Assembly: GCA_035546635.1 (NCBI GenBank)
Contig: DASZWJ010000019.1
Location: 229,386 to 293,385, forward strand
Direction: 5' to 3'
DNA: 64,000 bases
Origin: Gammaproteobacteria bacterium
Lineage (GTDB): Bacteria > Pseudomonadota > Gammaproteobacteria > JAURND01
A program made the translations under genes and the position numbers. Shown here one piece after another: positions 45,646-49,914 of this stretch (its first letter is position 1; every line of letters starts with the position of its first letter). A model generated the notes under the pieces. The model made no database searches. It saw nothing but the letters and a program-made list of their open reading frames with translations, and was not told where the DNA came from.

Positions 45646-46956
45646 GTGCATATTCATTTTTGGAATCAGTTATCCGCAATAGAACAGCAAAATCTGCTGG
45701 AAAGACCTAAAGCCAGTCAACCTGACTCAATTCGGGAAAAAACCCAAGCAATTATCGATCAAGTAAGGGAAGAGGGCGATGCAGCGTTAATTGACCTCAC
45801 CGTCCTACACGACAAAGTAAAACTAACCCAATTAACCACTACTTTAGCGGAATTTTCAGCAGCAAAAAATCAAATCCGCAAAGAAGCGTTAGCCGCTATA
45901 GAGCGTGCACAACAGCAGATCACCACTTATCATCAAGCACAACAGCCTGAAATCCGCAAAATTGAAACTGCCCCAGGTATTTACTGTGAGCGTCAGCCAC
46001 GTGCCATTGACAGAGTAGGGCTTTATGTTCCAGGTGGCTCTGCCCCTTTGATTTCTACTTTGCTGATGCTGGCAATTCCAGCACAGTTAGCCGGTTGCTC
46101 ACTCAAAGTCCTCTGCACACCACCGAATAAAAATGGCACTATTGATCCACATTTGTTATATGCTGCAGAGCTGTGTGGTATTCAGCAAATTTTTAAAATC
46201 GGCGGAGCGCAAGCGGTCGCTGCGATGGCCTATGGCACTGAATCTGTACCGAAAGTTGATAAAATCTTTGGGCCAGGAAATGCTTTTGTCCTTGCTGCGA
46301 AAATGTTGGTTTCACAGGATGCCAAAGGTGCCAGTATTGATATGCCTGCTGGTCCATCAGAGCTCCTGGTGATTGCCGATGACAATGCCAATGCAGATTT
46401 TGTTGCTGCAGATTTGTTATCTCAAGCTGAACATGGGATTGATTCGCAAGTGATATTGCTGACCATGTCAGTAGATTTTGCTAACCAAGTTCATGGTGCG
46501 CTTAACCAGCAATTATCCCAGCTATCACGTCGCACAATTGCTGAGCAATCTTTAGCCCATGGCCGTATTATTGTCGTTACCTCTTTGGAACAAGCATTTT
46601 CTATTAGCAATCGTTATGCCCCTGAGCATTTAAGCTTACAAATAACCCACCCAGAGAACTTTCTCACAGAGATTCATAATGCAGGAGCCGTATTTTTAGG
46701 TGACTGGTCAGCTGAAACTATGGGAGACTATATCACCGGTTCTAACCATGTTTTGCCTACTTCAGGTTTTGCGCGCGCCTATAGTGGGTTATCTTTAGTG
46801 GATTTTATGAAGTTTATTAGTTTTCAAAAAGTCAGCCGCCCTGGGTTGCAAGCCCTTGGGCCATTTGCCGAACAATTGGCCGAGCTGGAAGGATTGGATG
46901 CTCACAGAAATGCGGTGTCTATTCGTTTGGGAGTTGACTTTCATCCTGAGCATTAG
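45646..46956 (+). CDS. hisD: Histidinol dehydrogenase
   Basis: HisD similarity throughout. The last four codons and the stop lie inside a palindromic repeat. Confidence 0.9.
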   Translation: MHIHFWNQLSAIEQQNLLERPKASQPDSIREKTQAIIDQVREEGDAALIDLTVLHDKVKLTQLTTTLAEFSAAKNQIRKEALAAIERAQQQITTYHQAQQPEIRKIETAPGIYCERQPRAIDRVGLYVPGGSAPLISTLLMLAIPAQLAGCSLKVLCTPPNKNGTIDPHLLYAAELCGIQQIFKIGGAQAVAAMAYGTESVPKVDKIFGPGNAFVLAAKMLVSQDAKGASIDMPAGPSELLVIADDNANADFVAADLLSQAEHGIDSQVILLTMSVDFANQVHGALNQQLSQLSRRTIAEQSLAHGRIIVVTSLEQAFSISNRYAPEHLSLQITHPENFLTEIHNAGAVFLGDWSAETMGDYITGSNHVLPTSGFARAYSGLSLVDFMKFISFQKVSRPGLQALGPFAEQLAELEGLDAHRNAVSIRLGVDFHPEH

Positions 46957-47034
46957 TGAAGGATCTCCTTATGGTGGCACTAGCCACATGAAGTACCACC
47001 ATAAGGAGATCCTTCGTTTACGCTCAGGATGACA
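46941..47034. repeat. Family B palindromic element (TCATCCTGAGC…GAAGGATCTCC…GGAGATCCTTC…GCTCAGGATGA) at hisD/hisC junction
   Basis: A ~94-bp imperfect palindrome. It contains the hisD stop codon and the table-ORF hisC start. Confidence 0.85.
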
Positions 47035-47097
47035 AAAAAATACAGCAACAGCCATATTAACAATTTAATACTTAAGAGCATCTTGAGTACACATATT

Positions 47098-48156
47098 ATG
47101 CCCAACCTAGCACATTTAATCAGACCTGACCTGCGCGAATTCACTGCCTACAGCTCGGCTCGTGATGAAGCTAAAAAGGGAGAGATTTGGCTCAACGCCA
47201 ACGAATCACCTTGGGAAAATGAGCATTTTGCCGAACAAAAAATTAACCGTTATCCTGAAAAACAACCACAAAAATTGATTAATGCGCTAGCTGAAATTTA
47301 CGGTGTTAAAAATAATCAGCTATCTGTATTGCGCGGTAGCGATGAAGCTATTGATCTATTGATGCGCTTATTTTGTGAAGCGGGAAAAGATGCCATTATC
47401 ACTTGTCCTCCGACTTTCGGCATGTATGCTGTCTATGCCAAATTACAAGGTGCAAAAATAATCGATATTCCTTTAGTGCCTGAAGCAGGTTTTCAATTGG
47501 ATATGAAAAATCTAGTAAACCAACAACACCTCGAAGTTAAATTGATTTTTCTATGTTCTCCAAATAACCCAACAGGTAATTTATTGTGCGAGGCAGATAT
47601 ACTACAATTATGCGAGCATTATGCCGGAAAAGCCGTGATTGTAGTTGATGAAGCTTACATAGAATTTTCCTCGGCAAACAGCCTGTCTCACTATATAGAC
47701 CAGTATGAAAATTTAGTGATCCTACGTACCTTGTCCAAGGCTTACGGATTGGCCGGTGCACGCTGTGGTTTATTATTAGGTCACAGCTTTATTATCAACT
47801 GGATAAAAGCGATTATGGCGCCTTATCCATTGCCGGCATTTACGATTCATGCCGTGACGCAAACACTCATGAAATTACAACGCCTTAAGCAACAGATTGA
47901 GACCATTAAAACGGAGCGCGAGCGTTTGGCTACTGAATTACAGCGACTGCCATTTGTTAAAAAAATCTGGCCAAGCGCGGCAAATTTTTTGTTGCTAGAA
48001 ACAGAAAATTCACAAAAAATTATGCAAGCGTGTATAGATTCCGGTATTGTACTACGCGATATGCACGGGAAATTATTTTTGCAAAACTGTATCCGAATTA
48101 CGGTTGGTACGCCTTTAGAAAATGCTCGCTTAATTGAATTTTTACAAACGTTATAA
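47098..48156 (+). CDS. hisC: Histidinol-phosphate aminotransferase
   Basis: The N-terminus MPNLAHLIRPDLREFTAYS is HisC-like. The table ORF's upstream ATG at 47029 lies inside the repeat and adds 23 non-conserved residues. Confidence 0.85.
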   Translation: MPNLAHLIRPDLREFTAYSSARDEAKKGEIWLNANESPWENEHFAEQKINRYPEKQPQKLINALAEIYGVKNNQLSVLRGSDEAIDLLMRLFCEAGKDAIITCPPTFGMYAVYAKLQGAKIIDIPLVPEAGFQLDMKNLVNQQHLEVKLIFLCSPNNPTGNLLCEADILQLCEHYAGKAVIVVDEAYIEFSSANSLSHYIDQYENLVILRTLSKAYGLAGARCGLLLGHSFIINWIKAIMAPYPLPAFTIHAVTQTLMKLQRLKQQIETIKTERERLATELQRLPFVKKIWPSAANFLLLETENSQKIMQACIDSGIVLRDMHGKLFLQNCIRITVGTPLENARLIEFLQTL

Positions 48157-49242
48157 ATGAGTTTCTCAAACATGCCACAAGAAAAACTGCTTTTTATCGA
48201 CCGTGACGGGACTTTAATCGAGGAACCAGAAGATCAGCAGATCGATAGCATAGAAAAATTACATTTCCTGCCAGATGTCATTTCTAGTCTATTAAAATTA
48301 AAAACTGCCGGTTACAAATTTATTATGGTCAGCAATCAAGATGGCTTAGGAACTGATAGCTTGCCGCACGGAGATTTTCAGCCACCCCATGAATTAATGC
48401 TGCGTATTCTATCCTCTCAAGGCATTCATTTTGATGCCATACATATCTGCCCACATAAGCCGGACGCCAACTGTGACTGTCGCAAACCCAAAATCGGTTT
48501 ATTAGCGAATTATCTAATCGAACAAAAGATCAACCGTGAGCATTCTTATGTCATCGGTGATCGGCAGACTGATCTAGAATTAGCGCAAAATTTGGGAATA
48601 AAAGGCATCCGCATTCGCACCCCAACCACTCCAGGCTGGGCTGAAGTCGCTCACCAGATTCTATCTCAACCGCGGCAGGTGCAACTCATACGCAAAACTA
48701 AAGAAACTGCAATAGAAGTACAAATTGATCTTGATAAACCTAGTCCCATTCATATCCACACCGGTATCGGTTTTTTCGATCATATGCTGGAACAGTTAGC
48801 TAAACATGGTGGCTTCAGTCTAAAAATAACTGTTGCAGGGGATTTACATATTGACGACCATCATACCGTAGAAGATACGGCCATTACGCTGGGTGAAGCC
48901 ATGCGTGAAGCTTTAGGAGATAAAATAGGTATTGGGCGCTATGGTTTTTTATTGCCTATGGACGAAGCCTTAGCCAGGGTAGCCATTGATTTAAGTGGGC
49001 GCGCGCATTTAACTTTTAAAGCAGCATTTAACCGCGAGCGCGTGGGGGATTTATCCACGGAATTGGTAGAACATTTTTTCCGTTCTTTTGCCGAAGGATT
49101 AAAAGCGACATTGAATATTAAAGTAACAGGGGACAACACCCACCATATGATCGAATCAGTTTTTAAAGGCGTAGGGCGCGCCTTACGCCAGGCTATTGCT
49201 AAAACCGGGGATGATCTACCTAGCACTAAGGGTTTACTATGA
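48157..49242 (+). CDS. hisB: Bifunctional histidinol-phosphatase / imidazoleglycerol-phosphate dehydratase
   Basis: An N-terminal HAD phosphatase (FIDRDGTL) is fused to a C-terminal IGPD domain. Length 361 aa. Confidence 0.9.
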   Translation: MSFSNMPQEKLLFIDRDGTLIEEPEDQQIDSIEKLHFLPDVISSLLKLKTAGYKFIMVSNQDGLGTDSLPHGDFQPPHELMLRILSSQGIHFDAIHICPHKPDANCDCRKPKIGLLANYLIEQKINREHSYVIGDRQTDLELAQNLGIKGIRIRTPTTPGWAEVAHQILSQPRQVQLIRKTKETAIEVQIDLDKPSPIHIHTGIGFFDHMLEQLAKHGGFSLKITVAGDLHIDDHHTVEDTAITLGEAMREALGDKIGIGRYGFLLPMDEALARVAIDLSGRAHLTFKAAFNRERVGDLSTELVEHFFRSFAEGLKATLNIKVTGDNTHHMIESVFKGVGRALRQAIAKTGDDLPSTKGLL

Positions 49243-49850
49243 TTGCGATTATTGATGCCTGTGGGGCTAATTTCGCTTCGGTGGAATTTGCACTTAAACG
49301 CTTGGGGCGAGCAGTGACGCTCACGCGAGATAAAGACATCATTCGCTCAGCATCACATGTAATTCTACCTGGCGTAGGCACTGCCAGCCAGGCTATGCAG
49401 CAATTGGAAAATTTACAATTAATTTCAGTGATTCAGCAATTAACGCAACCGGTATTAGGTATCTGTCTTGGCATGCAGATTTTACATGCCCATTCTGCTG
49501 AAGGCGATGTGGATTGTCTAGGCCTTTTGCCAGGGGATATTAAGCCATTGCCAGAAGATCAGGGTTTACCTATTCCACATATGGGTTGGAATCAGCTATG
49601 CATCTCCCATGCGACCAGTTCTTTACTGCAGGATATCCCGAATAATAGCTACGTCTATTACGTGCATAGCTATGCAGCGCCAGTGACTGAGCATACCCTG
49701 GCTACCACCCAATACGGTGCAATATTTACGGCAGCAGTACATTATAAAAATTTTTATGGGGTACAATTTCATCCTGAGCGTTCGGGAGCGGTTGGCGCTA
49801 AGATATTACAGAATTTTCTTGTCCTGAGCGAAAGCGAAGGATCTCCATAA
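49239..49850 (+). CDS. hisH: Imidazole glycerol phosphate synthase, glutaminase subunit
   Basis: Class I GATase with the catalytic triad context GICLGMQ. The C-terminal ~8 residues are encoded by a palindromic repeat. Confidence 0.9.
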   Translation: MIAIIDACGANFASVEFALKRLGRAVTLTRDKDIIRSASHVILPGVGTASQAMQQLENLQLISVIQQLTQPVLGICLGMQILHAHSAEGDVDCLGLLPGDIKPLPEDQGLPIPHMGWNQLCISHATSSLLQDIPNNSYVYYVHSYAAPVTEHTLATTQYGAIFTAAVHYKNFYGVQFHPERSGAVGAKILQNFLVLSESEGSP

Positions 49851-49914
49851 TGTGGCGCCTCATCATAAAAGTGCCATCATACGGAGATCCTTCGCTATCG
49901 CTCAGGATGACAGT
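49819..49914. repeat. Family B palindromic element at hisH/hisA junction
   Basis: It has the same termini (gtcctgagcg…cgctcaggatgac) and the same GAAGGATCTCC/GGAGATCCTTC inner arms as 46941..47034. Its central loop differs but is self-complementary. It encodes the hisH C-terminus LSESEGSP. Confidence 0.85.

Follow-up and report, generated by a model that had tools for sequence, protein, structure and literature searches.

We found two long palindromes of one repeat family, here called family B, at the hisD/hisC and hisH/hisA junctions of a his operon lying in a 64,000-nt stretch of gammaproteobacterial DNA (the window). They are named W1 and W2, respectively, and a solo unit of the same family elsewhere in the window is named W3. 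Judged by sequence comparison, W1 and W2 are insertions at these two junctions, and they are probably gene-less, head-to-head dimers of a TGTC-tagged unit of the repetitive extragenic palindromic (REP)/Ssn type, spread or maintained in trans. The operon itself is complete (hisG-D-C-B-H-A-F-IE, 44741-52032), with all genes scoring far above NCBIfam cut-offs, and W1 and W2 occupy its only two sizeable junctions.

The two palindromes had been predicted from the letters of the window alone, and both exist at the places given, with ends slightly refined (Table 1). W1 consists of two 41-nt arms (46941-46981 and 46992-47032) that are 88% complementary across a 10-nt gap, while W2 has two 35-nt arms (49822-49856 and 49873-49907), 86% complementary across a gap of 16 nt, and ends 20 nt before the hisA ATG. 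As RNA, both fold very stably (W1, -60.1 kcal/mol, z -12.2; W2, -59.3 kcal/mol, z -9.8), and none of 200 shuffles equaled either. Each palindrome contains two inverted copies of a ~27-nt unit made up of an unpaired TGTC tag, a hairpin (ATCCT-GA-GCGN(N)AGC-GA-AGGAT), and an invariant C followed by a TC tail; the spacing inside the dimers is ~35-37 nt, and the palindrome carries on through it. The original prediction held that W1 and W2 share their termini and inner arms but differ in their loops. The first part stood; the second needs correction, as the centers are partly homologous, the two right halves agreeing at 86% of positions over 44 nt. Nor did that prediction identify the arms as copies of a TGTC-tagged REP/Ssn-type unit spread over many phyla.

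These units are far too frequent for chance. Allowing at most one mismatch, the window has 7 copies of GCTCAGGATGAC where chance predicts 0.13 and 5 copies of GAAGGATCTCC where it predicts 0.59, and a strict unit pattern gives 8 matches where 0.67 would be expected. The window holds seven units, five of which are intact (TGTCAT...ATC), three from family B and two from a second palindrome family, family A, whose units resemble the Neisseria NTS repeat; the other two are damaged. The TGTC tag is present in the right unit of W1, both units of W2, W3, and both family-A units. In W1 and W2 alike, the damaged arm is the one that overlaps coding sequence (46939-46942 and 49824, respectively): the left arm of W1 shows the change from TGTC to TTTC plus two stop codons within its core, and the left arm of W2 reads TGTC[ATC]CTGAGCG, in which the bracketed 3 nt are missing as an in-frame deletion. 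Both noncoding right arms fit the consensus exactly.

The overlap with coding sequence was analyzed from the translations and from the tails of orthologues, which agree that the C-terminal residues of HisD and HisH are read from the left arms, as had been proposed. HisD ends ...SIRLGVD-FHPEH, its last 5 residues coming from the left arm of W1 (TTT CAT CCT GAG CAT TAG), with the TAG stop at 46954-46956 inside the left unit. HisH ends ...NFL-VLSESEGSP, its last 9 residues coming from the left arm of W2 (GTC CTG AGC GAA AGC GAA GGA TCT CCA), with the TAA stop at 49848-49850 in the W2 center. HisD orthologues carry 0-12 variable residues after ...RL, and FHPEH was found in none of the 70 closest tails read. 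HisH orthologues are 194-200 aa long and end NFL-x-L-(x) in 110 of 120 cases. The arm-encoded V-L-S fits this native x-L-S pattern, and the HisH of the closest relative ends ELS; because the codons differ (CTG AGC vs. CTT TCT), the likeness looks like coincidence rather than a sign of in-situ origin. In the same manner, the half copy W3 supplies the upstream open reading frame (ORF) 28117-29100 with its end, ...GCHPGRK. One HisH of 230 aa (P0134) has a long tail, ...LRGREALGRGNPEILDCHAPQKARGSQ, that looks derived from another repeat family, and one HisD homologue of 613 aa (P0003) may be a fusion or a mis-call.

At its other end, W1 provides an in-frame ATG at 47029, which is the ATG of its right-arm terminus, GGATGACA. 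This is likely a spurious hisC start, the true one being at 47098, as originally suggested: the HisC profile begins at residue 32 of the long ORF, an independent gene call (L001) begins at 47098, and orthologue lengths likewise favor this position. The earlier view that neither insertion has broken the operon was also borne out, the downstream his genes all being intact by profile.

We then compared the same junctions in relatives. In L004, whose HisD is 63% identical, the end of hisH and the start of hisA share an ATGA, and hisD and hisC are separated by 60 nt. Conversely, in another gammaproteobacterium (L126) hisD and hisC overlap, while a 246-nt hisH/hisA gap is full of nested B-type elements, and HisH ends ...KMCHPEA, a B arm read in another frame. 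Empty sites were thus found for both junctions, hisH/hisA in L004 and hisD/hisC in L126. In L127, a related TGTC palindrome supplies the HisH tail ...PCHRER. The closest relative (L002, 75%) carries a different palindrome family (GTGCCACTAGAAGCTGCCCCC..., GTGCCACTAGAAGCTGCCCCCATCCTAACCTTCCC...) at both hisD/hisC and hisH/hisA, and its 340-nt hisG/hisD gap holds one family-B element together with at least one further palindrome. Since relatives have empty sites or other palindrome families at these positions, W1 and W2 are best read as insertions, and the uncoupled his junctions appear to have been repeatedly colonized by different palindromes in this clade. The dispersed copies, the orthologue tails, and the empty sites together uphold the earlier claim that both elements were inserted. 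In L126, the B-type elements at hisH/hisA (4595-4810) sit nested one in another, which suggests that such elements insert as units into the centers of existing copies.

To place the B arm more widely, a genome collection was scanned for the exact pattern TCATCCTGAGCG-N3-4-CGAAGGATC. The arm was present in at least 120 genome stretches, and the host distribution and arm statistics given here refer to the matches listed, which included 144 arms. Their hosts comprise Acidobacteriota, Chloroflexota, Patescibacteria, Omnitrophota, and Planctomycetota, as well as Bacillota, Bacteroidota, Cyanobacteria, and Alpha- and Gammaproteobacteria. An inverted partner lay within 110 nt for 75 of the 144 arms. 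The spacer was NAG or NNAG, giving GCGN(N)AGC, in 129 of the 134 arms with the 12 commonest spacers, and the three positions 5' of TCATCC were C in 44%, T in 79%, and G in 99% of arms. Centers between partner arms were variable in length (5-98 nt) and had a self-complementarity of 0.45, compared to 0.27 for shuffles; we therefore dropped the notion of an element that invariably folds into one perfect hairpin. Among 53 paired elements the inverted repeat usually stopped 2-3 nt beyond TCATCC, and no consistent target-site duplication was observed, nor was there one at W1 or W2. We also rejected the idea that arms preferentially supply gene ends, as 13 of 144 (9%) did so, compared to a rate of 8% for random positions; in 12 of these 13 the ORF is closed by the TGA of TCATCCTGA. 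A search of the full-text literature with the arm sequences returned chance primer matches only, apart from the Ssn paper, which was reached via a family-A string.

On IMG/VR viral contigs, too, the B arm was matched exactly, in 93 stretches (L208 onward), one of which, L248, has five arms in a tandem array. Phages or prophages could be vehicles of its cross-phylum spread; the associated nuclease gene described next was found in none of these 93 viral stretches.

In several genomes the arm accompanies a gene for a small GIY-YIG nuclease. A small GIY-YIG ORF (PF01541, E 1e-15 to 1e-18) was found in 5 of the 120 arm loci listed; all five have B arms within ~100 nt, and in three of the loci (L086, L058, and L121) a B arm stands on either side of the gene, the two arms being inverted and their tags pointing outward. 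For the reverse test, an alignment of four B-flanked GIY-YIG proteins served as query, and 80 metagenome loci encoding relatives were analyzed. A B arm lay within 250 bp of the gene in 58 of 80 loci (72%) and on both sides in 26 (33%), corresponding to an arm density of 2.67/kb near the gene, compared to 0.16/kb elsewhere in the same loci (17-fold). The commonest geometry, "+" upstream and "-" downstream, is that of the palindromes. The associated proteins are 92-100 aa long with a single GIY-YIG domain, and their catalytic Tyr/Tyr/Glu spacing agrees with that of SsnA, the Neisseria nuclease; the L058 protein has 93 aa with Y6, Y17, and E66. Given these arm-nuclease-arm units elsewhere, W1 and W2 look like a gene-less version, and the his palindromes are most likely the non-autonomous form of the unit.

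The conserved features of the arm suggest a link to ssDNA and not to RNA. Its core, GCGN(N)AGC, reads exactly like the reported mini-hairpin DNA (GCGNAGC/GCGNNAGC), which has a melting temperature (Tm) of about 70-76 C and a stability beyond conventional models, so that the standard fold model does not capture it. Both W2 cores, GCGAAAGC and GCGATAGC, are among the listed DNA mini-hairpins, the latter with a Tm of 71 C. By general nucleic-acid chemistry GA steps can form tandem G.A pairs, and the flanking 5'-GA/GA-3' steps of the arm could do so. Since a 27-nt arm with this core is conserved over phyla, the conserved feature appears to be DNA rather than RNA.

Table 1. Features of the window and of the closest relative (L002, in its own coordinates)
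Feature	Position	Strand	Place or length	Basis and remarks
W1, head-to-head dimer palindrome	46939-47034		hisD/hisC junction, 96 nt	inverted repeat, RNA fold, copy alignment
W1 left unit	46939-46968	+		tag TTTC, not TGTC; core degenerate, GCATTAGTG; weak single-arm DNA fold
W1 right unit, TGTCATCCTGAGCGTAAACGAAGGATCTCC	47005-47034	-		intact tag; exact match to cross-phylum arm pattern
W2, head-to-head dimer palindrome	49820-49912		hisH/hisA junction, 93 nt	inverted repeat, RNA fold, alignment
W2 left unit	49820-49846	+		TGTC intact; first 3 stem nt (ATC) deleted in frame; core GCGAAAGC
W2 right unit, TGTCATCCTGAGCGATAGCGAAGGATCTCC	49883-49912	-		exact match to cross-phylum arm pattern; core GCGATAGC
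W3, solo family-B unit, TGTCATCCTGGGCGTAAGTGAAGGATCTCC	29080-29109	+		
B arm as single-stranded sequence, TGTCATCCTGAGCGCAGCGAAGGATCTC				
Family-A palindrome, head-to-head dimer of NTS-like TGTC units	44619-44702		between msrA and hisG	
hisD	45646-46956	+		TIGR00069, E 1e-157; conserved domain stops at residue 427/436
hisC, likely true start	47098-48156	+	352 aa	TIGR01141; independent gene call (L001)
hisH	49239-49850	+		TIGR01855; conserved domain stops at residue 194/203; orthologue tails
hisA, intact	49933-50676	+	downstream of W2	TIGR00007, E 8e-75
L002 palindrome	7340-7430		hisD/hisC junction	
L002 palindrome	10250-10420		hisH/hisA junction	
L002 palindromes	5670-5960		hisG/hisD gap	

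Together, these results favor a scenario in which W1 and W2 entered the two his junctions that lack translational coupling, each insertion overwriting the last few non-conserved codons of hisD or hisH. Their spread or upkeep in trans would be due to an Ssn-like single-stranded DNA (ssDNA) nuclease; a DDE transposase is unlikely because target-site duplications are absent. The result would be a ~40-bp hairpin in a polycistronic mRNA, which ribosomes must unwind to reach the stops and which seems to be tolerated; the mRNA hairpin is probably a side effect of the insertion and not a regulatory device under selection.

Several observations weigh against this scenario. No GIY-YIG gene was found in the 64-kb window or in L001-L005, NCBIfam is without a family model for the B-flanked GIY-YIG proteins, and a PDB sequence search with these proteins gave weak UPF0213 matches only (E 0.002). 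The cores of the W1 arms are degenerate, and under standard parameters the DNA fold of a single B arm is weak (-1.5 to -3.7 kcal/mol, z ~0 to -1), compared to -9.0 kcal/mol and z -5.5 for NTS under the same parameters; the B-arm hairpin would depend on non-canonical pairs. The published search pattern for Ssn-related motifs (SRMs), HGTCWYN(0-2)YYVSBRHN(0-5)WNVSBRGN(0-2)RNCYNB, recovers NTS controls and matches no A or B arm in the window, where its sole match is a chance-like site within hisG. Finally, we know of no demonstrated mobility mechanism for Ssn-associated repeats.

A stronger version of the same idea, possible although we lean slightly against it as a whole, is that the B arm defines a distinct, cross-phylum specificity class of Ssn-like ssDNA nucleases, with W1 and W2 as DNA-level targets whose coding-overlapping arms have been selectively disabled. 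The target would be built on the GCGN(N)AGC mini-hairpin flanked by tandem G.A steps, and the SRM motif would miss it. There would be one cleavable unit per strand, the nuclease would cut just beyond the ends of the element, and disabling would have come about through the TGTC-to-TTTC change in W1 and the in-frame ATC deletion in W2.

The palindromes might instead be selected RNA elements, acting as RNase III or RNase E sites, 3'-exonuclease barriers, or translational decouplers that set the levels of hisGD, hisCBH, and hisAFIE. Roles of this sort had been raised in the original prediction; we consider this reading unlikely. The very stable RNA folds would suit such a role, as would the location of both palindromes on the sense strand of transcribed junctions, and the hisH/hisA junction is filled in 4 of 5 lineages examined. 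However, the occupants belong to unrelated families depending on lineage, L004 has none at hisH/hisA, and the inner stem of W2 has uncompensated mismatches and is decaying. It is the 27-nt arm with its DNA mini-hairpin core that is conserved over phyla, whereas the long stem is not and the centers vary. In addition, the stops lie inside the stems, so that translation melts them, and arms are no more frequent at ORF 3' ends than at random positions. Any RNA effect of W1 and W2 would probably be incidental, given that other families occupy the same sites, that the W2 inner stem is decaying, and that enrichment at gene ends is lacking. The hairpins would be expected to form only on untranslated mRNA, where, by analogy with other repeat families, they might hold up 3' exonucleases or serve as targets of RNase III; the predicted W2 fold leaves the putative hisA ribosome-binding site, AAGGGA, unpaired. 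A role as intrinsic terminators was considered and rejected: a terminator scan called neither palindrome, and the sequences that follow, CAAAAAAA after W1 and AGTCAAGG after W2, contain no T-run and hence no U-tract.

Quite improbable, in our view, is that W1 and W2 are classical miniature inverted-repeat transposable elements, that is, internally deleted insertion sequences (IS) moved in trans by a DDE transposase. Such elements would account for a core of variable length (5-98 nt) bounded by terminal inverted repeats of 27 nt, for the nested insertions in L126, and for the presence/absence differences among relatives. Against them stand the lack of any consistent target-site duplication and the near identity of the arm over many phyla, which IS ends do not usually show. 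Moreover, no transposase gene was noticed beside the arms, although no systematic search was made, and the gene that the arms do bracket encodes a ~95-aa GIY-YIG protein.

An origin in situ, by local inverted duplication of hisD and hisH 3' ends in which FHPE-like sequence is native, has next to no standing: TTTCATCCTGAGCG inside hisH at 49767-49780 encodes QFHPER and the HisH V-L-S tail fits the native pattern, but the same arms occur at an unrelated locus of the window, in the hisG/hisD gap of L002, and at no fewer than 120 other genome loci, the tail is found in no HisD orthologue among the 70 read, L002 and L004 encode FHPE by other codons, and the dispersed copies by themselves effectively refute the idea. 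The hisH segment QFHPER is the catalytic motif, and the DNA that encodes it has the same letters as the B arm in its 5' half, probably by coincidence since relatives use other codons. This segment can pair with the right arm of W2, 104 nt away (19 nt, 84%), and it could offer an alternative pairing because the left arm of W2 itself lacks 3 nt.

The preferred reading, that of a gene-less dimer of an Ssn-type repeat, thus describes a known kind of element, a selfish repeat, present here as head-to-head dimers at operon junctions that tolerate insertion. Family B adds a new member to that kind and possibly forms a distinct sub-type. For this genome it is of little consequence, as the his operon remains whole and the residues added at the C-termini fall beyond the conserved domains. 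For annotation, tails such as ...CHPE..., ...VILSE..., and ...SEGSP, together with spurious upstream ATGs, are signatures of the repeat that gene callers should distrust. The most useful by-product is the tight pairing of a near-invariant 24-25-nt arm with a small GIY-YIG clade. Should biochemistry bear this pairing out, the Ssn site-specific ssDNA nucleases would gain a further recognition specificity, and the CGTC-type REPs, regarded as "orphans," would be tied to a protein across many additional phyla.

Other repeats are present in the window. Most of the 138-nt spacer between msrA and hisG is taken up by the family-A palindrome, whose tag and tail are those of family B. It folds at -52 kcal/mol as RNA, and a single arm folds as DNA at -5.7 kcal/mol (z -3.8). 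Its arms, TGTCATTCCCACCTAGGTGGGAATCTAT and TGTCATTCCTGCGTAGGCGGGAATCTAT, are a few positions off the NTS consensus and closer to NTS than those of family B. Because TGTTTTTTAT follows, this palindrome may terminate msrA; the ~38 nt left between it and the start codon of hisG are too few to hold a classical his leader. A larger composite palindrome at 31613-31790 has two TGTCATCC tags first (TGTCATCCTGAGAATTGGCTGTCATCCAAGATGGATGGC...) and then long arms (GGCGAAAGTAGTGGGGCAGGGGCTTATCAGAC...). Intergenic palindromes of other families lie at 5290-5371, 14638-14702, 26110-26187, 35478-35550, and 37476-37561 (e.g., ...CCCTTCTCCC/GGGAGAAGGG...), so that this genome appears rich in several repeat families. 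Directly after the palindrome at 14638-14702 lies a TPP riboswitch (RF00059, 74.2 bits, 14810-14916), the sole Rfam match when the whole window was searched at gathering thresholds, with nothing at W1 or W2.

Among known systems, the REP/BIME elements of Escherichia coli and Salmonella and the Correia elements (NEMIS) of Neisseria are likewise palindromic repeats inside polycistronic transcripts, with documented effects on mRNA stability and RNase III processing. They differ in that REP/BIME units are GTAG-tagged and go with RAYT transposases, a tag not carried by the family-B units, whose tag is TGTC, and in that Correia elements have TA duplications. In a Legionellales relative, Coxiella burnetii, the small palindromic repeats QMITE1 and QMITE2 reach 1-50 bp into functional genes at their 3' ends or lengthen such genes in frame (EnhC) (Wachter et al. 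2018, PMC5896051). Their position over gene 3' ends recalls W1 and W2; however, they measure 150-400 bp and have 2-11-nt direct repeats, a GTAG REP that IS1111 targets is present in QMITE2, and they have no sequence relation to family B.

Closer is the CGTC-tagged REP superfamily, to which W1 and W2 probably belong on sequence grounds; the "Ssn-related motifs" of Neisseria (dRS3/NTS) would be of their kind. In the account of the superfamily by Di Nocera, De Gregorio & Rocco (2013, PMC3733652), the tag is CGTC and often TGTC, the stem of 8-9 bp begins with A-T and then T-A and encloses a loop of 4-5 nt, the tail has 3 nt, most copies are head-to-head dimers, and no transposase is associated; members include Neisseria dRS3 and Rickettsia RPE-4 and RPE-6, and the superfamily is reported in Coxiella. 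Family B agrees with this description in the CGTC/TGTC tag, the A-T/T-A stem start, the 3-nt tail, the head-to-head dimers, the occurrence of some units within genes, and the lack of an associated transposase, while it differs in its tail (CTC here, CCA there), in a stem broken by two non-Watson-Crick steps, and in the dimer spacing, over which the palindrome continues in W1 and W2. The B stem starts AT...AT and has 5 + 2 Watson-Crick pairs split by the GA/GA steps, with a GN(N)A loop, and its standard DNA fold is weak.

Closest of all is the Ssn system. SsnA (NMB0047) is a 94-aa GIY-YIG nuclease (Y6, Y17, and E64) that binds the Neisseria NTS, CGTCATTCCCGCGMAVGCGGGAATCYRG, and cuts beside it, acting on ssDNA only and not on RNA or duplex; for cleavage it relies on the three bases GTC lying 5' of the palindrome and for binding on the C just 3' (Chenal et al. 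2025, PMC11893778). Every intact arm here has GTC directly 5' and C directly 3' of the palindrome (TGTC[ATCC...GGAT]C). The B arm differs from NTS in its stem, CCTGAGCG...CGAAGG, with GA steps and the GCGN(N)AGC core. It resembles NTS, dRS3, and the SRMs in its YGTC tag, AT-initiated hairpin, invariant C, and short tail, and, in genomes other than the source genome, in the inverted copies that flank a gene for a ~94-aa single-domain GIY-YIG protein. The extent of this flanking is similar as well, 72% and 33% here against the 71% and 42% published for SsnA homologues flanked by SRMs (PMC11893778), and, like the SRMs, the B arm is widely distributed over phyla.

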